A stretch of 45,513 nucleotides of DNA from a bacterium. Lineage in GTDB: Bacteria > Margulisbacteria > WOR-1 > CAVSGV01. The DNA lies in NCBI GenBank assembly GCA_043820455.1, contig JBDRDU010000066.1, positions 1 to 45,513 of the forward strand, read 5' to 3'. Below are positions 3,001 through 42,670 of the stretch, piece after piece. Under the pieces are notes generated by a model. It had not been told where the DNA came from. It did not search any database and saw only the letters and a list, made by a program, of their open reading frames with translations. Made by a program: the position numbers and the translations under genes. Each line of letters begins with the position of its first letter. Within the stretch, counting starts at the first letter, position 1.

Positions 3001-3346
3001 AATATATATGCTGGAAACCCCGTGGGTGAGCCATGCCAAAGTTACGGCCAATGACGCGTATATCTTATGGGGTTCAACGTCAAGTTTTGAGGTAATAAAC
3101 GCGGTCAATGGATACAGGGCAAAGGCAAGGATAAAAGGTGGATTGGCGTGGGATGCGATATCTGAAGCAAGTGTAGCGAGATATCGGATAGCTGATGCGA
3201 CTATGCCGTCGGTATTGAACGAGAAGTTGAGTGTACTTCTGGGAGAAACTCCCGCCAGCAACTCTATCTATGAGGTAATAATGAGATCCGTTGGATCAGC
3301 CGGCTCAAGCGAGTGGTCTGCCGCGCATGAGGTCTATGTAACGGCC
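2..3346 (+). repeat. Coding tandem repeat array with a period of about 300-342 nt. There are about 11 units, the first one partial.
   Basis: The junction sequence CC(G/A)TGGGT(A/G)(A/G)GCCA(T/C)GC, encoding PWVSHA, recurs near nt 214, 514, 820, 1123, 1426, 1735, 2041, 2344, 2686 and 3016. The last three units are a longer variant (EAYVIWGSEASYEV...). One isolated unit lies near 4207. Confidence 0.9.
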
Positions 3347-7039: not shown

Positions 7040-7048
7040 GGAAAAAAT

Positions 7049-7080
7049 GAAATTACCAGAAGTATTTAACGATATATATA
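7049..7080 (+). promoter_or_regulatory. Shared upstream motif, copy A (GAAATTACCAGAAGTATTTAACGATATATATA). It may be a promoter or operator for the 1734-aa surface-protein gene.
   Basis: It aligns without gaps to 12412..12443 with 22 of 32 positions identical, including the block ATTT(A/G)ACGATATATATA. It sits 12 nt upstream of the ATG at 7093. TTACCA-N16-TATATA can be read as a sigma70-like promoter. Confidence 0.4.
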
Positions 7081-7092
7081 CAGGAGATAAAG

Positions 7093-12297: not shown

Positions 12298-12411
12298 CCT
12301 GTCTATGCAGTTGCCTCTTTGGGGCTTCTTGGTTTCAGCATTTGCGTTAATTCGCGTTTGCCGAAGCCGGAAAATCCGCCGCGGACGGACAAAATCAAAA
12401 ACAAAAAAAGT

Positions 12412-12443
12412 GAAATAAATGAAGTGATTTGACGATATATATA
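12412..12443 (+). promoter_or_regulatory. Shared upstream motif, copy B (GAAATAAATGAAGTGATTTGACGATATATATA), upstream of the barrel-SLH gene.
   Basis: It has the same 32-nt register as 7049..7080 (22 of 32 identical). It lies 63 nt upstream of the ATG at 12507. Confidence 0.4.
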
Positions 12444-12506
12444 TAGAGGGGAAAGGAGCTCGGGGGGATAGGGGAATGGAACGTAATGCTAGGGGGACAT
12501 GATTCG

Positions 12507-17710: not shown

Positions 17711-18963
17711 TATCTAATGATGGTTTTGTCGGAAAGATCGCCGAACTTGAAGGCGTCACCAGAGAAAAAATATTAAAAGGGCTCAGCTCCGGAGAGATCG
17801 TGATCCCGTACAACAAGATCCATTCTCCTCTTCATCCCATAGCGATAGGCACCGGACTTCGCACAAAGGTTAACGCCAATATAGGGACGTCAAAAGGATT
17901 CAGCGATCTTTCTCTTGAGCTCGAAAAAGTAGAGGTATGCATTAAGAACAAGGCAGATGCGATAATGGACCTCTCTGTGGGCGGGGATCTGGACGAGACA
18001 AGGCAGGCGATAATCAACGCTTCAACGCTTCCTGTAGGGACCGTTCCCATTTATCAGGCAGTAATAGAAGCGAGTTCAATAGAGAAAATGACCGCCGACA
18101 TAATGTTCAGGGCCATCGAAAAACATGCTCGGTCGGGGGTGGACTTCATAACGGTCCACTGCGGCGTGACAAGGGCTCTGGTCAAGAGGATACGCGGTAA
18201 AAAGCGTATCATGGACATAGTCAGCCGCGGAGGCGCTTTTCTTTACAGGTGGATGATCGTGAAGGAAAAAGAAAATCCTCTGTATGAACAATATGACAGG
18301 CTGCTTGAGATCGCGAAAAAATACGGCGTTACATTGAGCCTTGGGGACGGAATGAGGCCGGGCTGCATAGCTGATGCGGGGGATATGCTCCAGATGGGGG
18401 AATTAAAGGTCCTTGGGGCTCTGGCAAAAAGAGCCCGCAGGGCGGGAGTCCAGGTGATCATCGAAGGTCCGGGGCATGTTCCCTTGGACAAGATAGAAGA
18501 ACAGATAAAAATAGAGAAAAAGATATGCAACAAGGCGCCTTTTTATGTGCTGGGGCCTCTTCCCACAGATATTGCTCCCGGGTGGGACCATTTGACCTCT
18601 GCTATTGGCGGAGCGATCGCGGCGGCGGCAGGGGCGGATTTCCTCTGCTATGTGACCCCGTCCGAGCACCTCGGGCTCCCGAACCTGTCCGACGTAAAGG
18701 ACGGCATAATCGCGTCACGGATCGCTGCGCATATAGGCGATATAGTTAAAGGCGTAAAAGGCGCAAGAGAATGGGATGTTAAAATGTCAAAAGCGAGAAA
18801 AGCCCTGAAATGGGAAGAGCAGATCGAACTGGCGGTGGATCCCGTTACGGCAGCGGAAATAAGGGATATGAGGTCTGCAAGGGAAAAATCGGATACCTGT
18901 ACCATGTGCGGGGAATTCTGCGCAATGAAAGTGGTCTCAGAATCAAAGAAGCTGAAAAAATGA
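17707..18963 (+). CDS. thiC: Phosphomethylpyrimidine synthase ThiC (short form).
   Basis: 418-aa product with conserved ThiC core blocks and the C-terminal CTMCGEFCAMK (CX2CX4C) cluster motif. The start overlaps the upstream stop (ATGA). Confidence 0.9.
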   Translation: MISNDGFVGKIAELEGVTREKILKGLSSGEIVIPYNKIHSPLHPIAIGTGLRTKVNANIGTSKGFSDLSLELEKVEVCIKNKADAIMDLSVGGDLDETRQAIINASTLPVGTVPIYQAVIEASSIEKMTADIMFRAIEKHARSGVDFITVHCGVTRALVKRIRGKKRIMDIVSRGGAFLYRWMIVKEKENPLYEQYDRLLEIAKKYGVTLSLGDGMRPGCIADAGDMLQMGELKVLGALAKRARRAGVQVIIEGPGHVPLDKIEEQIKIEKKICNKAPFYVLGPLPTDIAPGWDHLTSAIGGAIAAAAGADFLCYVTPSEHLGLPNLSDVKDGIIASRIAAHIGDIVKGVKGAREWDVKMSKARKALKWEEQIELAVDPVTAAEIRDMRSAREKSDTCTMCGEFCAMKVVSESKKLKK

Positions 18964-19892
18964 AGGCACCCCAGATCGGCGAATTCAAGTTGATCGATAC
19001 AATAAGAAAGAACAATCCCGCTAAAGACAAAAGCGTTCTTGTCGGGATAGGGGATGATGCGGCAGCCGTCAAGGACGGGGCAGGCGGATACATCCTTATG
19101 ACGACGGATACTTTGGTCGAAAACATTCATTTCAACCTTAAATACTGCACATTTTACGAGCTGGGATGGAAGCTTCTCGCGGTGAACCTTTCTGACATCG
19201 CTGCAATGGGAGGTATCCCTAAGTATGCGCTTGTTACTTTGGGCATTAAAAAAGACACAGGTCTTTCTGGTATCAACGCTTTTTATACGGGGATCCGTTC
19301 TCTTGCTCGAAAGACCAAGGTTGATGTTGTCGGAGGGGATATTGTCAGCTCCCCAAATAACCTGTTCTTTACCATCGGGCTGTTTGGCGTTGCGGAAAAA
19401 GTGGTCAGAAGGAGCGGAGCAAGACCCGGCGACGCAATAGTTTCCATTGGGAAGGTTGGCGGGTCCGCGGTAGGCTTCGCATCCTTGAAAAAAAACCGCA
19501 GAAAAGCGTTAAGGATAAAGGGATCGATCGCGAAAGCTCATCTTATGCCGTTCCCCATGATCAAGGAAGGCCTCAACGCTTCCAGGCACGCGACCGCAAT
19601 GATAGATAACAGCGACGGACTTGCAAGATGCCTTATCGAAATATGCAAAGAAAGCAAAGTCGGCGCAAGGATCTATTCATACAATATCCCTCTCGCAGAA
19701 GATGCAAGCCTTGAGGATGGACTTAATGGAGGAGAGGATTATAATCTGATCTTGACCGTTCCAAAGAACAAAGTTGGCTACATCAGAAAAGGCATAGTTA
19801 TCGGAGAGGTGACGGGATCGAAGAAGATAGTTTTGATCGATAGGTCAGGCAGGGAAAAGGTCCTGAAGGACAAGGGGTACGAGCACTTTTGA
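18960..19892 (+). CDS. thiL: Thiamine-monophosphate kinase ThiL.
   Basis: MKAPQIGEFKLIDTI..., GIGDDAAAV, TTDTLVENIHF and AVNLSDIAAMGG. The ATG at 18960 overlaps the thiC stop. The ORF-track start at 18810 lies inside thiC. Confidence 0.85.
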   Translation: MKAPQIGEFKLIDTIRKNNPAKDKSVLVGIGDDAAAVKDGAGGYILMTTDTLVENIHFNLKYCTFYELGWKLLAVNLSDIAAMGGIPKYALVTLGIKKDTGLSGINAFYTGIRSLARKTKVDVVGGDIVSSPNNLFFTIGLFGVAEKVVRRSGARPGDAIVSIGKVGGSAVGFASLKKNRRKALRIKGSIAKAHLMPFPMIKEGLNASRHATAMIDNSDGLARCLIEICKESKVGARIYSYNIPLAEDASLEDGLNGGEDYNLILTVPKNKVGYIRKGIVIGEVTGSKKIVLIDRSGREKVLKDKGYEHF

Positions 19893-30123: not shown

Positions 30124-31359
30124 ATGGGCGAAGATATATCGACATCCTCCGGCGGACTGCATCCTGGAAGGCCTGTTATATGGCCGGCGGGTAAATCCGC
30201 CACTACCGCCCAGACTCCTCAGGCGGCCGCAGGAGCTCAGACGCCGCCCAAAATAACTCCAACACCTCAGGAAATAGCACAGGCTCAGGCTGCCGCAAAA
30301 GTGCTTGAGAGAGGTACGGTAGCCCGTCAATTTACCCAGGCGGACCTGATGGAACTTCTAGTATCACAGAATATTGATAATACAGAGGCGAACCAGAAAC
30401 TTGCCACAGCAATGCTTCGCTACGGAGTGGAAGTTTCAAGGGCAAATTTCACGAAACTTTCCGCGATGGTGGGGACCGACACGGGACAGACGATCCAGGA
30501 GGCGGCGATACTTCTTCTTATGAAAGGGATCGATTCTCCGGCTGCCACGAAGACTTTAAGCCAGTTTTTATCCGAGAATCCTCAGCTTGCAGCCCAGCTT
30601 TTATCTCTGAAAGGGAACATTTCGGACCTTCTTGCCGCTCTTTCCATGGGAAAAGGCATCATAAATGATCAATTGATTGCAAAGCTTATCGCTGTGCTTA
30701 TGCAGTTCAATGAAGACCTGGACAACGTTCCTGGAAAATACAAATTTTCAGGAAAAGGTTCCATGGGAAGGACAGAACTTTCTTCCAATTTAAGGGCGCT
30801 TAAGGCGATACTCGACGGTCTTCCCGGAAAGCAGAATTTACCGGACAGTGCGGAAGGGCAGATAGTCAAATCAAATATCAACGCCACTTCGAATAAACTT
30901 GACCAGATGATACAGAGTGTTATTTCCCAGGCGATGCTTTCAAAACAGTCCGCGAAACCCGATGTGAATTACTCTTATTACCAGATCCCGAATGCTTTGG
31001 TGAAACCTCCCACGACGGTTGACCTGATAGTTAAGAGGAGCGGCAAGGAAGGCGGGAAAAAAATAGACCCAGAGGATACCCAAATAATAATGTCGCTTGA
31101 AACATTGAATCTCGGGCGCATTGCCGTAAAAATGGCCATAAAAGGGAAGAGCGTTGAATTTCTGTTCAATACGCAAAATGACGAAGTAAAGTCCCTGGTA
31201 AACAGCAATTCGAAAGAGCTTGCCGGCGCTGTGTCGGGAAAGGATTTTTTGGTCCCCAAGATACAGGTGAAAGTGAATCCTTCGATGTGTGCGATAAAAC
31301 CGTTTTTGATACCTTTTCTTGGAATTGAAGATCTGATGAAAATAGATGTGAGCGCGTGA
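30124..31359 (+). CDS. Flagellar hook-length control protein FliK-like.
   Basis: Pro/Gln/Ala-rich N-terminal region. The C-terminal block LETLNLGRIAVKMAIKGKSVEFLFNTQNDEVKSLVNSNSKELAGAVSGKDF resembles the Flg_hook (FliK C-terminal) domain. It overlaps the following flhB-C-like gene, a pairing known in Firmicutes. Confidence 0.55.
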   Translation: MGEDISTSSGGLHPGRPVIWPAGKSATTAQTPQAAAGAQTPPKITPTPQEIAQAQAAAKVLERGTVARQFTQADLMELLVSQNIDNTEANQKLATAMLRYGVEVSRANFTKLSAMVGTDTGQTIQEAAILLLMKGIDSPAATKTLSQFLSENPQLAAQLLSLKGNISDLLAALSMGKGIINDQLIAKLIAVLMQFNEDLDNVPGKYKFSGKGSMGRTELSSNLRALKAILDGLPGKQNLPDSAEGQIVKSNINATSNKLDQMIQSVISQAMLSKQSAKPDVNYSYYQIPNALVKPPTTVDLIVKRSGKEGGKKIDPEDTQIIMSLETLNLGRIAVKMAIKGKSVEFLFNTQNDEVKSLVNSNSKELAGAVSGKDFLVPKIQVKVNPSMCAIKPFLIPFLGIEDLMKIDVSA

Positions 31360-31682
31360 TGGCAGAGAAAGATCGACCGACCCCAGCTAAAAGGACCGCA
31401 GTTGCGATGCGGTACGACGTGGAAGCGAACAAAGCCCCGCTTATACTTGCTTCCGGGCGAGGAGCTGTTGCGGATGAGATACTTCGCATAGCAGAAGAGA
31501 ACAAGATCCCTCTTTATGAGAACAGGGAATTGGCCAATATGCTCGCAAAACTCGAGATCGATACTGAGATCCCCCCTCAATTATATATCCTTGTTGCTGA
31601 AGTTCTTTTCTTTGTTTATAAGCTTGACAAGATGGCCGAGAAAAGAGAGAAGCTGATCAAAAGGATAACGGAAGAAAAATAA
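31356..31682 (+). CDS. FlhB C-terminal-domain homologue (EscU/YscU/HrcU-family switch-domain protein, YlqH/FlhX-like).
   Basis: AVAMRYDVEANKAPLILASGRGAVADEILRIAEENKIPLYENRELANML...IPPQLYILVAEVL matches the FlhB cytoplasmic-domain core. It has no TM region. Confidence 0.8.
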   Translation: MMAEKDRPTPAKRTAVAMRYDVEANKAPLILASGRGAVADEILRIAEENKIPLYENRELANMLAKLEIDTEIPPQLYILVAEVLFFVYKLDKMAEKREKLIKRITEEK

Positions 31683-31772: not shown

Positions 31773-32507
31773 ATGAGCGATAAGATCCTTGAAGTTGGAG
31801 GGGCAGGGATTGAAGGAGCGGACGCCAAAGTTAAGGCGCTTATGAGCAACATGGTCAACTCCGAGACGCCCGGATACAGGAAATCCGATGTTATTATCAG
31901 ATCTTTCCCTACTTATCTGGAAGAAGCCCAGCGAAGGTCCTCTACGCAAGTCCCGCAAATCGAAGGAATGCATTACAACCAAACTCCCGGAACACTCTTG
32001 CGAACGGGAAATAAAACAGATCTGTCCATAGGTGGCGAAGGTTTTTTTGTGGTTGGGACGCCGCAGGGAGAAGGATACACAAGAGATGGAAGGTTCACAT
32101 TGGACCAGGAGGGCAGGCTTATTACGGTTTCGGGCAATTTCCCTGTTATGGGAATTACGGGACCGATCATCGTTAATCCCGGTGATGATGTGGAATTTTC
32201 CGGGGATGGAAGAGTCAGGGTCAAAGGCGTGGAAGTGAACATGATAAAGGTAGTTAAATTCGAAGATATGTCCGTTCTCAGCCCGATAAACGGATCGGTT
32301 TTTAAAGCCAGCACTCAGGCGGAGATAGAAACGTCTCAAATGCCGCGTATTGTCAGCGGTTATGTTGAAGCGTCAAATGTGAACATTATAGAGGAAATGA
32401 TGAATTTGATCTATTTGTCCCGTGTTTATGAACTTGACGCAAAAGTAGTATCGAACAGGGAAGCTATGATGTCGAAGGCCATAGAGATGGGCCGTGCGGC
32501 GCAGTAA
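31773..32507 (+). CDS. flgF: Flagellar basal-body rod protein FlgF.
   Basis: N-terminal rod motif (MSNMVNSETPGYRK) and C-terminal GYVEASNVNIIEEMMNLI...RVYE. It sits directly upstream of flgG. Confidence 0.8.
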   Translation: MSDKILEVGGAGIEGADAKVKALMSNMVNSETPGYRKSDVIIRSFPTYLEEAQRRSSTQVPQIEGMHYNQTPGTLLRTGNKTDLSIGGEGFFVVGTPQGEGYTRDGRFTLDQEGRLITVSGNFPVMGITGPIIVNPGDDVEFSGDGRVRVKGVEVNMIKVVKFEDMSVLSPINGSVFKASTQAEIETSQMPRIVSGYVEASNVNIIEEMMNLIYLSRVYELDAKVVSNREAMMSKAIEMGRAAQ

Positions 32508-32545: not shown

Positions 32546-33349
32546 ATGTTTGAACCGCTTTATGTTGCTGCTACGGGGCTGAACGTTTTTGAGGACGAAA
32601 TGGTTGACATAACGAACAATCTTGCGAACGCCAGTACGGTGGGGTTTAAAAAAGGACGCGTTGAAAAGGAGAGCCTTTTTACCATCGAGAGGACTTTTCA
32701 GTCTGAACTGAGAGAGCAAATGATAAAGCAGGGGATCATCCCGACGTATGGCCCCATAGAATACGGGACCGGCGTGCGTGTTGCGGCGACAACGAAAGAT
32801 TTTTCTCAAGGTACGATCTCGGTCACGAGTAATCCTCTCGATCTGGCGGTCCAAGGGGAGGGGTTTTTCCAGTTCAGGATGCCCGACAATACATTCGCGT
32901 ATGGAAGGGCGGGGAATCTGCATGTTGATAATGAAGGGAATCTGGTGGATCCGAACGGCTACAAGATCGAACCCGGCATCATGATCCCTGAAGGGACGAC
33001 AAGAGTGATCATTAGGCAGGATGGCACAGTTGCTGTTTCCATCGACAATAGCGTCACTGTCCAGGATGTTGGGCAGGTCCCTCTGGTGAAATTCTTTAAT
33101 CCGGCGGGATTGAAGAGTATAGGGCAGAATTTATTTGTTGAGACAGAGTCTTCCGGGACGCAGATGATCGGGATCGCTAATCAGGAAGGGTTCGGTACGA
33201 TCAATCAATATGCGCTCGAAAGCTCGAACGTTGATGTTATGTCCGAAATGATGCGAATGGTCATGATACAGAGGATATTTGAGACCGTATCTAAAGCCGT
33301 TCAAAGCTATGACGGGATGCTGGCTTCAGTGGAAAAAATGAAATCGTAA
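32546..33349 (+). CDS. flgG: Flagellar distal rod protein FlgG.
   Basis: PLYVAATGLNVFEDEMVDITNNLANASTVGFKK at the N-terminus and LESSNVDVMSEMMRMVMIQRIFE at the C-terminus. Confidence 0.9.
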   Translation: MFEPLYVAATGLNVFEDEMVDITNNLANASTVGFKKGRVEKESLFTIERTFQSELREQMIKQGIIPTYGPIEYGTGVRVAATTKDFSQGTISVTSNPLDLAVQGEGFFQFRMPDNTFAYGRAGNLHVDNEGNLVDPNGYKIEPGIMIPEGTTRVIIRQDGTVAVSIDNSVTVQDVGQVPLVKFFNPAGLKSIGQNLFVETESSGTQMIGIANQEGFGTINQYALESSNVDVMSEMMRMVMIQRIFETVSKAVQSYDGMLASVEKMKS

Positions 33350-33365
33350 TAAGGATCAATTAATA

Positions 33366-34103
33366 ATGCGAGATTCAAGGATAATTAAAACAGCTCTAGT
33401 GTTGATCTTTCTGTTGGCTTTGGCCGGCAATTCAAGCTTTGGGGCTTATGTGTCCGATGATGTTCCCAGCAGGATCACAAAGGCCATAGTCAGCTATCTT
33501 GTCACTAAAGACAAAAGCTACGCCAATAAAAAGATAGAAGTATCATATAAATATGCGGATAGGATCTTCAGGGAGCTTAAAACCCGCAAGGGGAAGGTCA
33601 CTTTTTCGATCGCTGAGCTGTACCCGGATTTTAAACCGGTAGGTAATATTATTGTCCCTATCCAGGTGATCGTTGATGATGTCCCAAAGGAAAAAATATT
33701 CCTTAGAATGAAAGTTTCCATTTTTGACAGGATCGTTGTTGCGACAAAGCGCTTGAAGAGAGGGGATATGATAACCAGCGCCGAAGCTGCTGTTGAAGAG
33801 AGGGATGTTGCGGTGCTCAACCCTAATATAATAAAGGATATTAATCTTGTTATAGGCAAGGAATCTAAAACTTATATACCCAGCCTTAACCCTATATACG
33901 ACTGGATGATAAAAGAAAAGCCCCTTGTGCGAAAGAATGAAAAGGTCAAGATAAATGCGATCTCTCAAAACATTCTTGTGGTTGCCGTTGGGATCTCGTT
34001 GGAGGATGGGGACCTGGGATCCAAGATAAAGGTCAAGAACTTGAGTTCCGGAAAAGCATTGGTCGGCATGGTCACCGGCATGGGAGAGGTAACAGTGCAA
34101 TGA
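33366..34103 (+). CDS. flgA: Flagellar P-ring assembly chaperone FlgA.
   Basis: Signal peptide, then a C-terminal SAF-type region ([13 protein letters not shown]...[10 protein letters not shown]...[26 protein letters not shown]). It lies between flgG and flgH/flgI. Confidence 0.8.
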
Positions 34104-34441
34104 TGAGGACAATGCTTAAGTCAAAACTCCACAGGTTGACCGTTACCGACACGAACATTAATTATGAAGGAAGCATAACCATAGATAAAAACTTGATCAA
34201 AGTTTCTGATATTTTGCCGGGAGAACGTGTGCAAGTCGTGAATTTGAATAACGGCGAAAGATTTGAAACTTATGTTATCGAAGGCGGAAAAGGGGTTGTA
34301 TGTTTGAACGGCGCTGCCGCGCGCCTCGCGGCCTCTGGTGATAAAGTGATCGTGATCGCATATGCGACGGTTGACGAGAGCGAAGCCAAGAAAATGAAGC
34401 CGAAGATCGTTCTGGTCAATGAAAGGAATAAAATGAAATGA
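34100..34441 (+). CDS. panD: Aspartate 1-decarboxylase (pyruvoyl-dependent) PanD.
   Basis: [29 protein letters not shown], with the Gly-Ser self-cleavage site, Lys9/His11 equivalents, ...FETYVI... and NGAAARL. It is colinear with E. coli PanD. It has ATGA overlaps with flgA upstream and flgH downstream. Confidence 0.9.
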
Positions 34442-35034
34442 AAAAAATGAGAGTATTGTTCGCGATATTAATAGCAACTTCTCTTTTGACCGGTACTTTT
34501 TCCATTGCCTTTGCCGATTCTATCTGGGGCCGTACAAGCACTTCGCCGTATTCGGTCAGCAAATCTTTTAGAGTGGGGGATATAATAACGATCATCGTTC
34601 TTGAGACAACGTCGGCGGTCCAGAAGGCAGGGACGGACACGAATGCGAGCGACAGTTTGAGCCTTGCTTTCAGCTCCAATCTTTCATCCTTTTATCATTC
34701 CGGCAAGGCAATAACCGGTTCGGGCGGGAATGTTTATAAAGGGCTTGGCTCCACCACCAGAACAAGCAATGTGACAGCAAAGATAGCCGCAGTGGTCGTA
34801 AGGGTGCTGCCCAATGGGAACTTGATGGTTTCCGGAGACCACAGGGTCGAAGTAAATGATGAGATCCAGGTATTAAAAATATCCGGAATGGTGCGTCCAA
34901 AGGACGTGAGCCTGCAGAACACCGTTTATTCCTATCAAGTCGCAGGAGCGGATGTTTCAGTTAAAGGGAAAGGAGTTGTTGGAGAAGCGGAAAGCCCTGG
35001 CGCTATCACTCGCTTCTTAAACTGGATATTCTAA
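34438..35034 (+). CDS. flgH: Flagellar L-ring protein FlgH (no lipobox cysteine).
   Basis: [24 protein letters not shown]..., ...[33 protein letters not shown]... and a C-terminal ...[11 protein letters not shown]. Confidence 0.9.
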
Positions 35035-35035
35035 G

Positions 35036-36082
35036 ATGAAAAATTCAAAACTCAAAAAGCAAAGGTCAAAAGTACAAGGTAAAATTCAAAAGTTTTTATT
35101 TTTGACCTGTACTTTTTCCTTTTTCCTTTTGACTTTTACTTTTGTCTTTGCAGCGTCGCCTTCTGTCAGGGTAAAAGATATAGCTCATCTTCTTGAAGCC
35201 AGGGACAATCAACTCATGGGCTTTGGGCTTGTTGCAGGGTTAAAAAATACCGGAGATTCGGTCCAGACGGAATTCACGAAACAGGCGCTGACAAATCTGC
35301 TTTCAAGGATGGGGATAGCTCCCGGTGAAAAAGAATTTAAATCGAGAAATGTAGCTGCGGTCATGGTGACGGCAAAACTCCCGCCCTTTGTGCAAATCGG
35401 ACAAAAGATCGATGTTACGGTCTCTTCTCTCGGGGATGCCACAAGCCTTCAAGGCGGGACACTTCTTATGACGCCTCTTCAGGGGGCTGATGATAATGTG
35501 TATGCCGTTGCACAAGGCACGATTATGCTCGGCTTTTCCGGCGTGGAAAGGGCCCAGGTTCCCACCGCCGAAAAAAAACAGACCAATGCCGGCAGAATAG
35601 TTAACGGTGCGATCGTGGAGCGGGAAGTCCCCGTTTCTATCGACGAAAATTTCGTTTCAATAGTGATCGACAAGCCCGATTATACGACCGCCTCGCGTAT
35701 CGCCATTGCAATGAAGCAGATAGGGATACGTGCGAGAGCGAGGGACGCCGCCACCGTGATAGCTTCAAAGGAAGTTTATCAGGATATGGTGGAATTCATT
35801 GCTGTCCTTGAAAATTTGACGATAGTACCCGATGCGGTCGCGCGCATCGTGATAAACGAGCAAACGGGAGTTATAATCATGGGAGAGAACGTCAAGATCG
35901 CGCCTGTTGCCATATCGTATGGGGATATGAACGTGACCGTTCTATCCGCGACACCCGAAGCCACGATCTACGATCTTGTTTCAGCCTTGAATGCGGCTGG
36001 CGTGAAGCCAAAAGACCTAGTATCTCTTCTTCATGCGATCAAATCGTCCGGGGCCATTTCGGCCGATATAGAGGTGTTGTGA
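35036..36082 (+). CDS. flgI: Flagellar P-ring protein FlgI.
   Basis: The mature N-terminus VRVKDIAHLLEARDNQLMGFGLVAGLKNTGDS and ...LQGGTLLMTPLQGADDNVYAVAQG are canonical FlgI blocks. Confidence 0.9.
   Translation: MKNSKLKKQRSKVQGKIQKFLFLTCTFSFFLLTFTFVFAASPSVRVKDIAHLLEARDNQLMGFGLVAGLKNTGDSVQTEFTKQALTNLLSRMGIAPGEKEFKSRNVAAVMVTAKLPPFVQIGQKIDVTVSSLGDATSLQGGTLLMTPLQGADDNVYAVAQGTIMLGFSGVERAQVPTAEKKQTNAGRIVNGAIVEREVPVSIDENFVSIVIDKPDYTTASRIAIAMKQIGIRARARDAATVIASKEVYQDMVEFIAVLENLTIVPDAVARIVINEQTGVIIMGENVKIAPVAISYGDMNVTVLSATPEATIYDLVSALNAAGVKPKDLVSLLHAIKSSGAISADIEVL
35039..35148 (+). repeat. Hairpin-forming module with an A-rich arm and a T-rich arm, covering the flgI signal-peptide codons.
   Basis: AAAAGTACA(A)GGT at 35068..35080 pairs with ACCTGTACTTTT at 35105..35116, giving 12 bp with one bulge. 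A/T pairs extend into the loop. The A-arm contains AAATTCAAAACTCAAAAA, which resembles the repeat at 15143..15171. Confidence 0.55.
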
Positions 36083-36372
36083 TGGACCCTTATATAACGG
36101 GGATCAATCCTTTACAGTCCATTGGTCCTCAGGCCAATGTGAGCAAGGTTAAAACAAGGGCCGATGCAGAACGTGAATTCGCGTCGATGTTCATAGCTCA
36201 GATATTAAAAGAAACGTTCAAAAGCCAGAGCTCCATGTTCGGGAAGGATAAGTCCATCGGCATGTTCTCTGATAATTTGTATAATGATATCCTTATAGCC
36301 AAGATCTCCAGTGAGATCGCGCAGAACAAATCCTTTGGTTTTGATAAACTTATGGCGGGCAGCAAATTATAA
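36079..36372 (+). CDS. Rod-binding protein (FlgJ N-terminal domain only, no muramidase domain).
   Basis: 97-aa product. AEREFASMFIAQILKETFKS matches the rod-binding domain core. It lies directly after flgI. Confidence 0.7.
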   Translation: MMDPYITGINPLQSIGPQANVSKVKTRADAEREFASMFIAQILKETFKSQSSMFGKDKSIGMFSDNLYNDILIAKISSEIAQNKSFGFDKLMAGSKL

Positions 36373-37109
36373 TGGCAATTAAAAAGAGAACGGCGCGGCA
36401 GGAAGCGCGCAATGAAGAAGAGAGGCCGATCAAAATGGCCGAAATGTACATGCCCCTTGTGCATTCGATCGCTTCGATCGTTTCCAGCAAAGGCCTTCCA
36501 CCCAGCATAGATTATAACGACCTGGTCGCTGATGGGACAGTAGGGCTGATGAAGGCATGGAAAAGTTTTGACCCGAGCCGCGGGGTAAAATTCGAGACAT
36601 ATTCTTCATATAGGATCAGGGGGGAGATATTGGACGGGCTGAAGAATTACAACCCCGTGCCGTACAGGGTGCAGGTAATGATAAGGGATGTCGCGAAAAA
36701 AGGGTATGCGGCATTGACCGGAAAAAAGGAGCTGGAAGAAGAGGAGAGTTACGAAAAAAAAGAAATATCCGAGGATGAGTTCAAGAAAGCCATAACAAAG
36801 ATCAGGAAAATAGTCTCCGCTTCAGCCCTGATGTATTTGATGTCGCTCGAATCAGCCCAGGAATCAGGTGTTGAGATCAATGTATCCACTGAAAAGACGC
36901 CGGTAGAGGAATTGGAATTCGCGGAGCTGAGGGAGCGGCTTAAGAAGTCTTTAAATGAGCTTCCGGGGATCGACCAACAGGTCATCGATCTTTTCTTTAA
37001 CCGTGACATGAACCAGAAGGACATCGCTTCAAAAATGAAGCTGTCAAGAAGCAAAGTGAACAGGATCATAGGAAAAGCGATCGTGTTCTTAAGAGGAAAG
37101 TTGAAATAA
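36372..37109 (+). CDS. fliA: Flagellar sigma factor, FliA/WhiG (sigma-28) family.
   Basis: Region 2 (DLVADGTVGLMKAWKSFDPSRGVKFETYSSYRIRGEILD) and region 4 HTH (DQQVIDLFFNRDMNQKDIASKMKLSRSKVNRIIGKAI). It is about 245 aa and lacks region 1. It is embedded in flagellar genes. Confidence 0.8.
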   Translation: MAIKKRTARQEARNEEERPIKMAEMYMPLVHSIASIVSSKGLPPSIDYNDLVADGTVGLMKAWKSFDPSRGVKFETYSSYRIRGEILDGLKNYNPVPYRVQVMIRDVAKKGYAALTGKKELEEEESYEKKEISEDEFKKAITKIRKIVSASALMYLMSLESAQESGVEINVSTEKTPVEELEFAELRERLKKSLNELPGIDQQVIDLFFNRDMNQKDIASKMKLSRSKVNRIIGKAIVFLRGKLK

Positions 37110-37112
37110 ATC

Positions 37113-37436
37113 ATGGTAGGCGAAGAAATAAGGCCGATTATGCCGCTTGAAATATATGACAGCACGTATGTAGGGCTGGAGAGAGCCATTGAGGGAACAG
37201 CGAAGAAACAGGCTGTTATCGCGCAGAACATAGCCAATATCAACAATCCCGATTATAAAGCTCTTGAATTTGATGAAGCCTTGAATAAGGCCGTGAAAAG
37301 GACCAATAGCAAGGTGACACTTGAGGAGGAAATGGATGCTCTTTCGAAGAACGCGCAGAGACATTCGGCTTATTTAAAGCTTCTTGCGTCAAAGATAAAC
37401 ATTATGCATACGGTGATAACCCAGGGGAGGAAATGA
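37113..37436 (+). CDS. flgB: Flagellar proximal rod protein FlgB.
   Basis: QAVIAQNIANINNPDYK rod motif. About 107 aa, located upstream of flgC-fliE. Confidence 0.8.
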   Translation: MVGEEIRPIMPLEIYDSTYVGLERAIEGTAKKQAVIAQNIANINNPDYKALEFDEALNKAVKRTNSKVTLEEEMDALSKNAQRHSAYLKLLASKINIMHTVITQGRK

Positions 37437-37441
37437 TCTAA

Positions 37442-37870
37442 ATGGGACTTGATCAGGCGTTAGATATAAGCGTATCGGCAATAACCGCGAACAGGACTCA
37501 TATGGAGATCATTTCGAGCAATCTTGCGAACATTAATACGACAAGGACGCTGCAGGGCGGGCCTTACAGAAGAAAGATCCCTGTTTTTCACGAAAAGCCG
37601 CTTGAATTTTCAGAGGCTTTGAACGCTGCAGAAAGGAATATGTCCGGCGGGATAGAGGTTGGCGAAATAGTCGAGGATCCGGCTCCATTCCAAAAGGTTT
37701 TCAATCCCGGACATCCTGATGCGGACAGCGAAGGGTTTGTTTCGCTCCCGAACGTATCCATGGCGAAAGAAATGGTTGACATGGTCTATGTATCCAAGGT
37801 TTATGAAGCGAATATAACTGCGTATAACGCAACGAAGAAAATGGAGCAGGAGATACTGCAGATACAATAA
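37442..37870 (+). CDS. flgC: Flagellar proximal rod protein FlgC.
   Basis: MEIISSNLANINTTRT at the N-terminus and LPNVSMAKEMVDMVYVSKVYEANI at the C-terminus. Confidence 0.9.
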   Translation: MGLDQALDISVSAITANRTHMEIISSNLANINTTRTLQGGPYRRKIPVFHEKPLEFSEALNAAERNMSGGIEVGEIVEDPAPFQKVFNPGHPDADSEGFVSLPNVSMAKEMVDMVYVSKVYEANITAYNATKKMEQEILQIQ

Positions 37871-37888: not shown

Positions 37889-38209
37889 GTGGTTAATTTT
37901 CCGATCAGCCCCATATCTTTAGCGCAGGTTGCAGGTTCTGCTGCTATGCCGTCGGCATCGCCAACCGGGCCTGTCCAGACAGAAAGTATTTTTGATAAAG
38001 TGCTCGGACGCGCAGTTGACGCTTTAAACAATGTTTCCGAAACGGAAATGAACGCGAATAAGCTTATCGATGACTATATGGCCGGGAAAGTGGAGCTTTC
38101 CGATGTCATGCTTGCGACCTCAAGGATGACGGTCGCTGTTCAGCTTGCTGTTACGACCATAACTTCAGCTGTAAGCACTTTTAAAGAAATAACACAGATG
38201 CCCATATAG
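37889..38209 (+). CDS. fliE: Flagellar hook-basal body complex protein FliE.
   Basis: GTG start with a GGAGG Shine-Dalgarno sequence. ...ELSDVMLATSRMTVAVQLAVTTITSAVSTFKEI matches the FliE C-terminal helix. Confidence 0.8.
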   Translation: MVNFPISPISLAQVAGSAAMPSASPTGPVQTESIFDKVLGRAVDALNNVSETEMNANKLIDDYMAGKVELSDVMLATSRMTVAVQLAVTTITSAVSTFKEITQMPI

Positions 38210-38250: not shown

Positions 38251-39633
38251 ATGGCGGAAGGCGTATCGCCCGTTCCAGAGGGGGGACAGAGCGGCAGGCA
38301 GATAATAATAATCGCAACTGTTGTCACAGTTGTTTTTTTTACTTTCTTCATTATGGGGTTAAGGTCCTGTTCCACGTTGACTGAACAGGGAACAGCGAAG
38401 AGCAAACCTTCGTCCCATGTGGTCATTTATTCCAATATGAGCTTGAAGGATTCAGCTCTTGTGATAGCAAGGCTTAAAGAACTGAAGATCCAGTATCAAA
38501 TAAAGGATGAAGGCCGCTCCATTGCTGTTGCCAGGGGCCAGGCGGATGAAGCCCGGCTCGGGCTTGCGGAAAAAAATCTTCCATCAGGCGGATCTGTCGG
38601 ATGGGAAATATTCGATCAGTCCAGACTCGGGGCCACCGACTTTGACAGGAGAATTCAGTTCATCCGCGCGATATCCGGCGAACTTTCAAGGACAATAAAC
38701 AGGATCGGTGCCATTGAAGATGCAAGGGTCCAGATCGTAATACCGGAGACCAAACTGTTCGAGGTCTCAAAAGCTCCTGTCACCGCTTCGGTCCTTATAA
38801 AAATGAAACCCGGGGAAACCTTGATCCCCAAGCAGGTGAACGGCATCATGTATCTTGTTGCAGGGAGCGTTGAGAATTTAAAGCCGGAAAATATAACCAT
38901 AATTGATACAAATGGGAATATTTGGGGCGGAGGAGAATATGCTCTTGCTGCGCCAAGGGAAGTAACGTCCACGCCTAAAGCCGAGATGAGGCCGGAAGTT
39001 GTCATAGAGAAGGAAGAAGAAAAAAATGCCCTGGAGGTCCAGGCAAAGCTGGACCTTGAAAATGCGCTGACAAGCAGGGTCCAATCGCTGCTTAATAAGT
39101 TATATCCTCCAAACATCACGATCGCCAGGGTTAATATTGATTCGATGAAAACAAGAAAAACCACGATCATAATTCTGGTGGATAAAACCTATAAAATAAC
39201 CCAGGACTTGAAGAAATCCACATTTGAAACAATTTCAGCTGCGGCAGGTTATGACAAGACCAGGGGAGACAAAATAATCATGAAAAGTGTTCCTTTTCGT
39301 TCAGCAGGGACTGTCCCGATCCCTGCTGTGACAAGGAAAGGAACTTCGGCGGCGATCACTTTGTCTGCCCTTAAAGCGATATATCGAAAATACGGCAAAG
39401 AATCTGCCATTGCGATTATCGTGCTATTTTTACTTGTTTTATTCTTGATTTTCAGGTTGTTCAGAAAAGGGAAAAAAGAAGATTTAGCGGAAGCGCCTCG
39501 CGAAGAAGAAGCTGCCATGGAAGCAGAGGAAGACAGGGTCCCGATAGTTGACCACATGAAAGATCTAGCGTCGCAAAACCCTGAATTTGCGGCGGAACTC
39601 ATTAGATCGTGGGTGGAGCAGGAGGAAGCTTAG
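38251..39633 (+). CDS. fliF: Flagellar M-ring protein FliF (short, 460 aa).
   Basis: N-terminal TM helix, RBM1/RBM2-like blocks (...LGLAEKNLPSGGSVGWEIFD..., ARVQIVIPE...ASVLIKM...), a short RBM3, a second TM helix (AIAIIVLFLLVLFLIF) and a FliG-binding tail (DLASQNPEFAAELIRSWV). Confidence 0.85.
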   Translation: MAEGVSPVPEGGQSGRQIIIIATVVTVVFFTFFIMGLRSCSTLTEQGTAKSKPSSHVVIYSNMSLKDSALVIARLKELKIQYQIKDEGRSIAVARGQADEARLGLAEKNLPSGGSVGWEIFDQSRLGATDFDRRIQFIRAISGELSRTINRIGAIEDARVQIVIPETKLFEVSKAPVTASVLIKMKPGETLIPKQVNGIMYLVAGSVENLKPENITIIDTNGNIWGGGEYALAAPREVTSTPKAEMRPEVVIEKEEEKNALEVQAKLDLENALTSRVQSLLNKLYPPNITIARVNIDSMKTRKTTIIILVDKTYKITQDLKKSTFETISAAAGYDKTRGDKIIMKSVPFRSAGTVPIPAVTRKGTSAAITLSALKAIYRKYGKESAIAIIVLFLLVLFLIFRLFRKGKKEDLAEAPREEEAAMEAEEDRVPIVDHMKDLASQNPEFAAELIRSWVEQEEA

Positions 39634-40145
39634 TGTTAAAAGGTTACGAGAGAGCAGCAGCGGTCCTATCGCTTTTGGGAGATGAGCTTTCCCAGAAGAT
39701 ATTAGGTTATCTTCCTGAAGATACCGCCGTTTCAATAATATCCGCATCTGAAAGATTAAAGACTCCCACGAAGGATGTACTGTTGGATGTAGTTTCAGAA
39801 TTCAATGATCATATGGTGAATGCTCAGAAAGCGTCTGTGGAGAGCGCGGAAGAAGAAATAAAAACTGATGCCGAAACTGCGGTTTCGATCCACTCGGGAT
39901 CGCCACTTGACGTTATTTCAGAGGCTTCCGCGCAGTCTTTGGCAAAAGCGCTTGAAGCGGAGAGGCCGGAAATAACCGCATATGTCCTTTCACATCTTCC
40001 GGTGGAAAAAATATATGAAACTTTGAACCTTTTTAAAGAGAACAGGGAGCTGGTGGAAGCAAGGCTTCTGTCCATAAAGGATGTTCCGATCGCGAAGGAA
40101 CTAGAAGAAAAATTATTGAAAACCATCTCTGAGAGGCTTGCTTAA
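39633..40145 (+). CDS. fliG: Flagellar motor switch protein FliG, N-terminal and middle domains only (about 170 aa).
   Basis: The GTG at 39633 has a GGAGGA Shine-Dalgarno sequence 7 nt upstream. The alternative GTG is at 39609. ERAAAVLSLLGDELSQKILGYLPED is FliG_N. LEAERPEITAYVLSHLPVEKIYETLN corresponds to the EHPQ(T/R)IA block of FliG_M. The ORF stops at TAA, which overlaps the fliH ATG. Confidence 0.8.
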   Translation: MLKGYERAAAVLSLLGDELSQKILGYLPEDTAVSIISASERLKTPTKDVLLDVVSEFNDHMVNAQKASVESAEEEIKTDAETAVSIHSGSPLDVISEASAQSLAKALEAERPEITAYVLSHLPVEKIYETLNLFKENRELVEARLLSIKDVPIAKELEEKLLKTISERLA

Positions 40146-40855
40146 TGGGCCTAATAAAAAAAGGACACTTGGTCGATAAAGGTGTTCTTTACCTGGAAGA
40201 GTATGCTGTGCAGGCTGAGACTGAAAACATCTCCCCAGCGGAACTCCCCGAGATAGAATTGCCGGAAACATTGGGAGTGGAAGAACCGGGACTTGAAAAG
40301 GAAAAGCTCGTTGATCATGCAAAAAACGAAGCGGAGCAGATAGTAAAAAAGGCAATGGAGGAAGCGGAACGTGTCAGGGAACATGCAAAGGAGTCTGGGT
40401 TGGAAGATGCGAAGAGGATCGCGGAGGAGTCCGCATCAGACAAGGTGAAAGAAGCGCTCCAGACCCTGAATCAGGCAGTGATCGAGAGAAAAAAGATCAT
40501 AAAGGATGCGGAAGGGGAGATCCTTCGTCTCGCCTTAAAGGTCGCTGAACAGATAATCAAGTCGGAAGTGTCCCTGCACAGGGACGTATCGTTGAATATT
40601 GTGTCTGATGCGATAAACAGGGTGAGCGACAGGGAACAGGTGATAATAAAGGTGAACAGGGAAGATATAGAGAACATAAAAAAACATAAAGACAGGATCA
40701 GCAGCATTGTCGATGGGATAAAAAGCCTTTCGATCGTGGAGGACAGCGGAGTGGAGTCGGGGGGATGTGTGATTGAAACAAATCTCGGTTATGTTGATGC
40801 CAGGATATCTACAAAGATCGCCGCTATAGAAGAAGCCTTTCGAAAGGCAAAATAA
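40145..40855 (+). CDS. fliH: Flagellar export ATPase regulator FliH.
   Basis: Coiled-coil region rich in E/K/A, then ILRLALKVAEQIIKSEV and a C-terminal ...GGCVIETNLGYVDARISTKI. It lies between fliG and fliI. Confidence 0.85.
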   Translation: MGLIKKGHLVDKGVLYLEEYAVQAETENISPAELPEIELPETLGVEEPGLEKEKLVDHAKNEAEQIVKKAMEEAERVREHAKESGLEDAKRIAEESASDKVKEALQTLNQAVIERKKIIKDAEGEILRLALKVAEQIIKSEVSLHRDVSLNIVSDAINRVSDREQVIIKVNREDIENIKKHKDRISSIVDGIKSLSIVEDSGVESGGCVIETNLGYVDARISTKIAAIEEAFRKAK

Positions 40856-42169
40856 ATGGTCGACATAGACTTTGAAAAATACCACAAAGCAGCAGAACAT
40901 GCTGACCTCGTAAAAGTCATCGGAAAGGTCATCCAAGTAGTAGGGCTTATCATTGAAGCGCAAGTTCAGGGAGTTTCCATGGGGGACCTTTGCACATTAA
41001 AACTCGGCAAAGGAGATGTTGAATCATATGCTGAGGTGGTGGGATTCAGGGAGGGCAGAGTCATGCTGATGCCCTTGGGCACAACTTCGGGAATTTCCCC
41101 CGGAAGCCAAGTGGTTGCGGCCGGACATCCTCTTAAAGTAAAAGTGGGACCGAAGCTTCTTGGAAGGGTCCTTGGCGGGTTGGGAGAGCCGATAGACGAC
41201 AAAGGCCCGATCGAATATGAGTCTGAGGCTTTCCTTGATGCTGAGCCGCCGGATCCCGTGAAAAGACCTAGGGTGACCGAGGTTTTGATGGCGGGAATAC
41301 GGGCGATAGACGGGCTGCTTACCTGTGGCAGAGGGCAGCGTATGGGCATTTTTGCGGGCTCAGGGGTCGGAAAAAGCACCCTTATGGGCATGATAGCAAG
41401 GAATGCCGATGCGGATGTTAACGTGATCTCGCTTATAGGGGAACGTGGAAGGGAAGTCCGTGATTTTATCGAAGAGTCTCTGGGGGAAGAGGGATTAAAA
41501 AAATCAGTTGTGATCGTTGCCACATCCGACCAGCCTCCATTAATAAGATTAAAAGGAGCTTTTGTCGGTACCGCCATAGCGGAATATTTCAGGAATAAGG
41601 GGCTCAAGGTCATTTTAATGATGGACTCCGTTACAAGATTCGCGATGGCGCAAAGGGAAATAGGGCTTGCAACGGGAGAGCCTCCGACGACAAGAGGTTA
41701 TACCCCCTCAGTATTTGCGATCCTACCGAAATTGATGGAGAGGTCGGGTACGGCAGAAGTCGGCACAATAACGGCTTTCTATACGATACTTGTCGAAGGT
41801 GATGATTTCAATGAGCCGATCGCTGACCAGTCGAGGTCGATCCTGGATGGGCATATAATCCTCTCCCGGGACCTTGCCGCAAAGAACCATTATCCTGCGA
41901 TCAATGTCCCGCAATCTGTGAGCAGGCTCATGGTGAACCTGGTCTCTGACGAGCACAAAGAAGCAGCGGCAAAATTAAGGGAGGTCCTTGCAAGGCATTC
42001 AGAAGCGGAGGACCTGATAAATATCGGTGCCTATGTTAAGGGGAGCAATCCGAAGATAGATTATGCGATAAGCAAGATCGATGAGGTGAATGAATTCCTG
42101 AAGCAAGGGACATTTGATCAATGCGATTACGAAGAGACCGTTGAAAGACTGCTCAGCATATTTTATTGA
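40856..42169 (+). CDS. fliI: Flagellum-specific ATP synthase FliI.
   Basis: Walker A GSGVGKST, Walker B VILMMDSVTR, and F1/T3SS ATPase family blocks throughout. Confidence 0.95.
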   Translation: MVDIDFEKYHKAAEHADLVKVIGKVIQVVGLIIEAQVQGVSMGDLCTLKLGKGDVESYAEVVGFREGRVMLMPLGTTSGISPGSQVVAAGHPLKVKVGPKLLGRVLGGLGEPIDDKGPIEYESEAFLDAEPPDPVKRPRVTEVLMAGIRAIDGLLTCGRGQRMGIFAGSGVGKSTLMGMIARNADADVNVISLIGERGREVRDFIEESLGEEGLKKSVVIVATSDQPPLIRLKGAFVGTAIAEYFRNKGLKVILMMDSVTRFAMAQREIGLATGEPPTTRGYTPSVFAILPKLMERSGTAEVGTITAFYTILVEGDDFNEPIADQSRSILDGHIILSRDLAAKNHYPAINVPQSVSRLMVNLVSDEHKEAAAKLREVLARHSEAEDLINIGAYVKGSNPKIDYAISKIDEVNEFLKQGTFDQCDYEETVERLLSIFY

Positions 42170-42202: not shown

Positions 42203-42670
42203 ATGGCGCGCGAACAAAGACCGGGCAAATTTAAATATACTCTTGAGACCGTTCTCAGGGTAAGAGGGATAAAAGAGCGGAGGGAATCGGAAAAATTTGC
42301 CGAAAAACAAAGAGAATATTTAACTGAAAAGCAAAAAGAAGAACAGCTTGAGGAGGAAAAAAAGGAAAAAGAGGGCGAATTGAAGCATATCATCAAGAAA
42401 GGGCCGATATCCCAGTTCGAAAAAGTGCTGAGACGCCATGCGCATCTTGGCGTATTAAGGAAAGATATCGACGAACAAATAGAAAAAGTGATAGACGCTT
42501 CGAAGCGTCTTGAGGGCCAGAGGGCGAAGCTTATCGAGTCAATGAAGGAAAGGAAGATCATTGAAAAAGACAAAGGGCACAGGCTGGATGATTACGAGAA
42601 AATGATGAAAAACCTTGAGATCAAATTCCTGGATGAAATAGCGACACAGCGCTTTAAGCGAGGGCTTTAG
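42203..42670 (+). CDS. fliJ: Flagellar export chaperone/stalk protein FliJ.
   Basis: 155-aa all-helical, charged product directly after fliI. FKYTLETVLRVR... at the N-terminus and ...EIKFLDEIA near the C-terminus are typical. Confidence 0.75.
   Translation: MAREQRPGKFKYTLETVLRVRGIKERRESEKFAEKQREYLTEKQKEEQLEEEKKEKEGELKHIIKKGPISQFEKVLRRHAHLGVLRKDIDEQIEKVIDASKRLEGQRAKLIESMKERKIIEKDKGHRLDDYEKMMKNLEIKFLDEIATQRFKRGL

Follow-up and report, generated by a model that had tools for sequence, protein, structure and literature searches.

A FliG without its torque domain in a WOR-1/Saganbacteria-type flagellar gene cluster: a possible adaptor in a non-rotating hook-basal body

The DNA analysed here, hereafter the window, is an entire metagenome-assembled contig from NCBI, 45.5 kb long (JBDRDU010000066.1, 45,513 nucleotides), whose right half carries a flagellar gene cluster on the plus strand. 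The genes are arranged in the order fliK-like, flhB_rel, flgF, flgG, flgA, panD, flgH, flgI, an open reading frame (ORF) at the flgJ position, fliA, flgB, flgC, fliE, fliF, short fliG, fliH, fliI and fliJ; 3′ of fliJ come rpmB, on the opposite strand, and then recG. The gene of interest is the one placed between fliF and fliH, a fliG of only 170 amino acids (aa) that carries the name hypothetical protein at NCBI. Its parts are the following.

39633-40145, plus strand: short fliG, 170 aa, made of an N domain, a linker and an M domain and lacking the C domain
39620-39625, plus strand: ribosome-binding site AGGAGG of short fliG, 7 nucleotides 5′ of the GTG (direct sequence reading)
39633-39827, plus strand: FliG_N part, about residues 1-65, four helices (Pfam FliG_N, model helices and match to 5tdy_D)
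39837-39893, plus strand: disordered acidic linker, about residues 69-87 (predicted local distance difference test, pLDDT, below 50)
39903-40142, plus strand: FliG_M or ARM_M, about residues 91-170 (Pfam FliG_M and match to 4fq0_C)
39960-39971, plus strand: ERPE, residues 110-113, equivalent to the EHPQ part of the EHPQR FliM-binding motif (aligned with DEHPQ, residues 124-128, of Salmonella)
40143-40147, plus strand: TAATG overlap between the fliG stop and the fliH ATG (40145-40147; direct sequence reading)

Translation of the short fliG starts at a GTG at 39633 that overlaps the fliF stop codon (TAGTG). A start within the longer ORF that opens at 39609 is unlikely because the homologues begin with MLKG at the position equivalent to 39633. 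At the other end, the TAA at 40143-40145 reaches one base into the start codon of fliH, and an intact fliH with a conserved N-terminus follows directly; the same overlap and the same intact neighbour had been recognized in an earlier sequence-only reading of this DNA.

Both retained domains score above the Pfam gathering score of 25 (FliG_N 38.9 bits, FliG_M 35.3 bits), and the 170-aa product has no Pfam match to FliG_C (PF01706). Against a full-length FliG profile of 335 positions, built from 59 full-length FliGs, it spans positions 7-186, so that about 149 positions are missing; these figures agree with the sequence-only reading, which had the protein ending after the middle domain with some 145 residues absent. 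Positions 187-335, which make up our FliG_C profile, are lacking altogether, and with them the charged torque helix. The protein aligns with residues 4-170 of Salmonella FliG and with residues 12-187 of the 329 of Aquifex FliG, that is, up to the first turn of helix_MC. The earlier claim that the product matches FliG through the N and middle domains is right for the two folds but needs refining between them: there the disordered acidic linker, whose sequence and length differ between homologues, takes the place of helix_NM and of the latter half of the canonical N domain.

In the AlphaFold model of the short FliG (mean pLDDT 73.5), four helices (residues 4-15, 17-25, 29-41 and 47-75) form the N domain, residues 69-87 are disordered, and the M domain has six helices. 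In Foldseek comparisons the model matched Salmonella FliG in the C ring (8umd_B, E 1e-4), FliG_N of the FliF-FliG_N complex (5tdy_D, TMt 0.70) and FliG_M of the FliG_M-FliM complex (4fq0_C, TMt 0.79, root-mean-square deviation 1.4). Within the M domain, the FliM-binding motif reads E110-R-P-E113, with R144 as the counterpart of the final arginine of EHPQR. The 170-aa product is a truncated FliG orthologue: it has the N domain, the M domain and the gene position of a FliG, has no C domain, and scores far below the curated NCBIfam FliG cut-offs (30.6 against 226.7 for TIGR00207 and 38.2 against 550 for NF004260). Membership in the MgtE family was rejected, as the match to the MgtE N-terminal domain (PF03448; E 1.9e-4, 22.3 bits) is under the Pfam cut-off and the gene context is purely flagellar.

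The short form is the rule in the relatives of this locus. A word-indexed search gave 61 clusters at 90% identity, among them 58 full-length ones with 54-81% identity, none shorter than 158 aa or longer than 178 aa. In an exhaustive HMMER search over 1.84 billion representatives, about 45 clusters (50% identity) of N+M proteins of 146-197 aa were placed at the top, and full-length FliGs appeared only from E ~1e-12 downward, the best of them coming from other phyla. The same short length recurs in more than 100 independent assemblies (NCBI, ENA, JGI and Logan). Comparison with the orthologous clusters, which the sequence-only reading had proposed, placed the short gene between fliF and fliH in all the related loci seen, namely 20 to 30 independent loci with the same cluster order (L001, L005-L007, L009-L012, L014 and 15 JGI loci). 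Among the five loci recovered by contig search with ±10 kb of flank, one lies on a complete 1.77-Mb chromosome. The JGI loci derive from a search with the FlhB C-terminal domain only: fifteen of the 80 reach a complete fliG, every time of 155-195 aa, and a sixteenth (L081) ends at the contig edge.

Selection has acted on these genes. Relative to the closest DNA relatives, the ratio of non-synonymous to synonymous substitution rates (dN/dS) is 0.06-0.17 for short fliG, 0.02-0.03 for fliI and 0.06-0.08 for fliH, values that are upper bounds because dS is saturated. No other protein of the cluster evolves as fast as the short FliG, whose identity across classes is 24-35%, compared with 79-84% for FliI, 48-60% for FliH and 39-40% for FliF; FliI reaches 79-94% identity across the class. 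An order of 17 genes is shared by lineages whose short FliGs are only 24-35% identical, and no frameshifted copies were seen in the loci, except possibly for fliF of L007. Judged by these sequence comparisons, the constraint on the short FliG is relaxed but real. This is the reverse of the situation in ordinary flagella, where FliG is among the most conserved proteins.

Three proteins (P0210, P0214 and P0221) were considered as a second FliG of the group and rejected, as they belong to other lineages (a sigma-54-type cluster, a contig of 63% GC, Nitrospirota). Nine further FliG-like proteins of 212-260 aa (P0213, P0219, P0232, P0256, P0258, P0260, P0285, P0296 and P0298) give alignments that begin at the N terminus and extend across the M domain, and may be contig-end gene fragments or further truncated FliGs in other lineages.

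The missing domain was searched for with the FliG_C profile. In the six frames of the window the profile gave only weak cross-matches to short fliG itself, expected because of the internal ARM repeat, and the absence of any FliG_C-like translation from the window, noticed earlier among the listed ORFs, holds. The same profile detected no FliG_C in 984 kb comprising the window and the loci around the clusters, almost all of them related loci with a few, controls included, from other lineages; in the control loci it recovered the full-length FliGs at E 1e-45 to 1e-72. No MotA homologue was found in those 984 kb either. A second flagellar locus, carrying the export gate, fliN, flgE and possibly motAB, was looked for in the 80 metagenome loci of the FlhB C-terminal domain search, which held no further flagellar genes.

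FliG paralogues without N domain were observed elsewhere, in a cluster on contigs of about 40% GC (L099:2013-8024, also L100 and L101). The cluster encodes two 244-aa proteins with a weak FliG_M plus FliG_C and one 518-aa tandem FliG_MC-FliG_MC protein; its neighbours are a 141-aa soluble protein matching MotA (phmmer E 2e-6), a leucine-rich-repeat protein and HicB, with no other flagellar gene within 8.7 kb. The 518-aa protein (P0236; FliG_M and FliG_C, no N domain) was rejected as a trans-acting partner of the short FliG, as these 40% GC contigs have no detectable link to the lineage.

The other genes of the cluster are as follows.

30124-31359, plus strand: fliK-like gene, hook-length control, 411 aa (Pfam Flg_hook, E 8e-7, 29.2 bits, slightly below the 29.8 cut-off)
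31356-31682, plus strand: flhB_rel, a stand-alone FlhB C-terminal domain protein, 108 aa (Pfam Bac_export_2 positions 261-335; NCBIfam TIGR00789, E 4.7e-25)
31773-32507, plus strand: flgF, rod (flgF/flgG pair with Pfam LlgE_F_G_D1, Flg_bbr_C and Flg_bb_rod)
32546-33349, plus strand: flgG, rod (same Pfam domains of the flgF/flgG pair)
33366-34103, plus strand: flgA, P-ring assembly chaperone (Pfam ChapFlgA, E 6e-27)
34100-34441, between flgA and flgH: panD, aspartate decarboxylase (Pfam, E 9e-50)
34438-35034, plus strand: flgH, L ring (Pfam FlgH, E 1.9e-44)
35036-36082, plus strand: flgI, P ring (Pfam FlgI, E 6.8e-99)
36079-36372, plus strand: small ORF at the flgJ position, 97 aa (position kept in relatives)
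36372-37109, plus strand: fliA, sigma-28 factor (NCBIfam FliA/WhiG TIGR02479, E 1.8e-40, under its cut-off)
37113-37436, plus strand: flgB (ORF and conserved gene order; orthologues in L009 and L014 with Pfam Flg_bb_rod)
37442-37870, plus strand: flgC (ORF and conserved gene order; orthologues in related loci with Flg_bb_rod and Flg_bbr_C)
37889-38209, plus strand: fliE (ORF and conserved gene order; orthologues in related loci with Pfam FliE)
38251-39633, plus strand: fliF, MS ring, 460 aa (Pfam YscJ_FliF, E 8e-57)
40145-40855, plus strand: fliH (Pfam FliH, E 4.7e-20)
40856-42169, plus strand: fliI, export ATPase (Pfam ATP-synt_ab and T3SS_ATPase_C)
42203-42670, plus strand: fliJ (Pfam FliJ, E 8.8e-9)

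The window thus shows FliF, FliH, FliI, FliJ, the rod, the P and L rings and FlgA, whereas the export gate, FliN/FliY and FlgE are known only through the published table discussed below. The fliK-like gene keeps its position in nearly all related loci, and flhB_rel comes after it wherever both are visible. The flhB_rel protein begins beyond the NPTH autocleavage position and has no NPTH site. Its identity, 64-86% in direct comparison with four related loci and 60-90% over the 80 metagenome loci, is unusually high, far above that of FliK, FliF or FliG. In some relatives fliK-flhB_C is detached from flgF, and among the genes that follow are members of a protein family of 261-299 aa, frequently arranged in tandem (L044:406-2112, L076:1545-3191, L087:3646-4431, L097:1268-2110, L055:12239-13138 and L084:11209-12030), with a signal peptide, a lysine-rich coiled coil, a glycine-rich C-terminal region resembling an outer-membrane beta-barrel, and no Pfam match.

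The start and stop codons of panD overlap those of its neighbours, and the gene occupies the same site in many relatives and is not there in others. The 97-aa ORF at the flgJ position gave no Pfam or NCBIfam match and may encode a putative rod-binding protein, as far as its residues can be read. The flgB of the window, the only window copy scanned among flgB, flgC and fliE, gave no Pfam match. FliF is short in the sub-lineage of the window, 460-477 aa as against 482-548 aa in other classes, and fliF of L007 (8621-10001) is split over two ORFs (306 and 101 aa), perhaps through a frameshift or an assembly error. At the left of the window, 5′ of housekeeping genes, positions 35-15137 encode three very large surface proteins. 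One is an fn3-rich ORF of 2334 aa whose 5′ edge lies no more than 35 bases from the start of the contig; the other two are a TIG/CBM11 protein of 1734 aa and a protein of 883 aa that carries four S-layer-homology domains. As listed, the ORF of thiC (17707-18963) shares about 150 bases with that of an AIR-synthase-related, AIRS-domain protein (18810-19892), and the true start of the AIRS-domain gene is probably further downstream.

The closest named homologues set the locus in its lineage. FliI homologues at 80-86% identity are named Candidatus Margulisiibacteriota/Margulisbacteria, candidate division WOR-1 and Candidatus Saganbacteria. On WOR-1 assembly GCA_001771695.1, a 165-aa FliG (L009) lies beside the FliI P0143, which bears the NCBI name RIFOXYA12_FULL_43_27, and an NCBI Saganbacteria metagenome-assembled genome (L011) carries one of 152 aa. 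Matheus Carnevali et al. (2019) published tables of KEGG orthologues for 46 genomes, 26 of them Saganbacteria (PMC6349859, Supplementary Data 2 and 4); the Saganbacteria set includes RX3B (RIFOXYA12_FULL_43_27), a sister assembly to that of L009, and the closed RX5A of 1,668,697 bp. In these tables FliG (K02410), FliM, FlgK, FliD, FlgM, FlgN, FliL, FlhF, FlhG, FliW and FlgJ are scored in none of the 26 Saganbacteria, FlgL in one (a 'check_length' call in RX6A), and the chemotaxis genes are mostly scored absent (PMC6349859). FlhA, FlhB, FliO/P/Q/R, FliH/I/J, FliF, FliE, FlgB/C/G, FlgH/I/A, FliA and the FlhB-like K04061 are scored present in almost all of them, FliN/FliY in 23 of 26 and the hook protein FlgE in 21 of 26 (PMC6349859). 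The flagellin and FliS rows say nothing, because they are empty for all 46 genomes (PMC6349859). In the sister Riflemargulisbacteria the set is complete, with FliG, FliM, FlgK/L, FliD, FliL and chemotaxis genes, and the authors considered these organisms to be motile by polar flagella; the Saganbacteria pattern was left without discussion (PMC6349859). In the literature on flagella or FliG of Margulisbacteria, Saganbacteria, WOR-1 or Omnitrophota we found no published discussion of a short FliG, the only trace being an undiscussed '#N/A' in a supplementary table (PMC6349859).

What the short FliG has conserved points to its contacts. Over 52 diverse short FliGs, with a median pairwise identity of 29%, the conserved positions are concentrated in the first helices of the N domain and in the E-(R/H)-P-(Q/E) motif of ARM_M, E110 being the sole residue that is invariant in all of them, whereas the C-terminal half of ARM_M is poorly conserved. 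The motif is E-(R/H)-P-Q in relatives, with H to R and Q to E changes in the sub-lineage of the window. On the side of the partners, the whole class keeps the FliF C-terminal motif (...NPE..A.L[IL]..W...), located in the segment of FliF that is bound to FliG_N in solved complexes. Interfaces of the FliF and FliM type are both retained. The FliH N-terminus, MG[LI]IK[KR], is conserved class-wide, and a similar 'LIK' occurs in FliH of an unrelated lineage with full-length FliG; by analogy with known systems this segment is predicted to bind FliN.

We propose an adaptor model for the short FliG. In the model, helix_MC, ARM_C and the C-terminal torque bundle would have disappeared for good from the fliG orthologue in the ancestor of the WOR-1/Saganbacteria branch of Margulisiibacteriota, leaving a two-domain adaptor. 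The N domain would hold the conserved C-terminal peptide of FliF, and the M domain would keep the E-x-P-Q/E...R surface that binds the middle domain of FliM/FliY in ordinary motors, so that the short FliG would tether a FliN/FliY-FliH-FliI export platform to the underside of the MS ring. It would still grip FliF and offer a surface for FliM/FliY, but would no longer receive torque. Export gate, MS ring, rod, hook and the P and L rings would make up the resulting machine, and torque ring, FliM switch, FliL, hook-filament junction and filament cap would be missing from it. The Saganbacteria ancestor would then have turned its flagellum into a non-rotating hook-basal body, serving type III export or acting as a surface organelle; export would be the selected activity because FliI, FliJ and the FlhB_C-like protein are strongly conserved. 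The evidence leans, with moderate confidence, towards the short FliG being an adaptor in such a non-rotating export machine; the adaptor role and the non-rotation are what we infer, and the co-absent genes are taken from the published table.

Several observations weigh against this model. The table of KEGG orthologues misses both the short FliG and the weak FliK-like gene that were seen in the present analysis, so absence from it is unreliable for divergent proteins, and FliM, FlgK/L and FliD could be divergent rather than lost. It lists no MotA/MotB, and the FliG_C search covered 984 kb, which leaves room for a stator or for a distant FliG_C. Sigma-28, the FliK-like ruler, the highly conserved FlhB_C-like switch protein, the hook and the P/L-ring bushings are retained as in a complete flagellum. 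Finally, the window is assigned to the WOR-1/Saganbacteria-type branch by FliI similarity and gene order rather than by genome phylogeny.

One objection, an error of sequencing or assembly at about 40140, which the sequence-only reading had named as its possible refutation, or else a nonsense or frameshift mutation there that is confined to one strain, has practically no probability left: the stop codon runs into the start of a fliH with a conserved N-terminus, no frame holds a FliG_C-like translation, and since the short length is lineage-wide, over the many independent assemblies, and under purifying selection, an artefact is excluded. Selection bears equally on the idea that the flagellar genes are being lost and the short fliG is a functionless, decaying relic. 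Many flagellar genes are indeed already missing, and the short FliG evolves faster than its neighbours, but the dN/dS values, the highly conserved FliI, the 17-gene order kept among such divergent lineages and the near lack of frameshifted copies make decay very improbable.

Under another reading the bacteria still swim, with torque generated without FliG_C on the FliF-bound subunit, either through a FliG_C protein acting in trans or through an undescribed rotor-stator interface; we regard this as doubtful. In the former case FliG would be split, or subfunctionalized, with ARM_C and the C-terminal bundle supplied by a separate, distant gene, docking on ARM_M or the C ring and giving normal MotA/MotB-driven rotation. 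A torque domain in trans is structurally plausible because ARM_M, which is retained, normally stacks on the ARM_C of the neighbouring subunit; N-less FliG_M+C proteins do occur in nature, as in L099, and the retention of the hook, the FliK-like and FlhB_C-like proteins, sigma-28 and the P/L rings, with MotA/B not being in the published table, is compatible with rotation. However, gene splits normally stay adjacent, and no FliG_C adjoins the short gene in the 20 to 30 loci or occurs in the 984 kb around the clusters. K02410 is scored in none of the 26 genomes, one of them closed, though a FliG_C-only protein might fall under the threshold, and the C-terminal half of ARM_M is poorly conserved across the class. 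With FliM, FliL, FlgK/L, FliD and most chemotaxis genes scored absent in parallel, a working propeller would be unlikely, and we consider a split FliG improbable. In the latter case the stator would push on a different protein, such as FliN/Y or some partner of the M domain, instead of on FliG_C. The retained hook, P/L rings and sigma-28 favour this only indirectly, we know of no precedent for it, the filament junction and cap, FliL and chemotaxis genes are scored absent, and no MotA homologue appeared in the loci examined; its chance appears slight. Of the three readings offered from the sequence at the outset, a split FliG, another stator interface and a basal body that does not rotate, the first two are weakened and the third is the best supported.

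To our knowledge the stator pushes against FliG_C in every case, and we know of no working flagellar motor that lacks this surface. A FliG reduced to N and M domains is surprising to flagellar specialists. A whole free-living class, related to Cyanobacteria, keeps it under purifying selection together with a highly conserved export ATPase, rod, P/L rings and hook. If the adaptor model is true, the class provides a natural experiment on what a non-turning flagellum is for, and possibly a second way, independent of the injectisome, in which a flagellum became a secretion or surface organelle, here without losing its outer-membrane rings and hook. If instead the cells swim, the textbook rotor-stator model needs revision. 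In either case the KEGG, TIGRFAM and PGAP thresholds score FliG as missing or hypothetical in the lineage, which distorts motility predictions and reconstructions of flagellar loss.

Like canonical FliG (Salmonella, Thermotoga maritima and Aquifex aeolicus; PDB 8umd, 3hjl, 5tdy and 4fq0), the short FliG is encoded between fliF and fliH, has the FliG_N fold, the one that takes up the C-terminus of FliF, and keeps the E, P and R of EHPQR in an ARM_M fold. It differs in having the acidic linker where the canonical protein has the second half of the N domain and helix_NM, and in ending at the start of helix_MC, whereas canonical FliG continues into ARM_C and a six-helix bundle with the charged torque helix. 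The MgtE N-terminal domain (PF03448) has a homologous helical fold, but the short FliG is without CBS or transporter domains. The aphid endosymbiont Buchnera aphidicola reportedly bears filament-less flagellar basal bodies. As is proposed for the Saganbacteria machine, Buchnera keeps the export apparatus, MS ring, rod, P/L rings and hook and has lost filament, motility and chemotaxis functions, and both are read as protein exporters. Buchnera keeps full-length fliG and fliM, and is an obligate endosymbiont, whereas the Saganbacteria are free-living in sediment and groundwater, with a truncated FliG, FliM undetected, and this state conserved class-wide. The sorting platform of the injectisome (SctK/SctQ/SctL/SctN) does not rotate, and its inner-membrane ring is joined through an adaptor to a protein of the FliM/N family, a stator of the FliH family and the ATPase. 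The proposed platform of the short FliG would be alike in logic, although SctK is not homologous to FliG, and the flagellar rod, P/L rings and hook, lost in the injectisome, are all kept in Saganbacteria.

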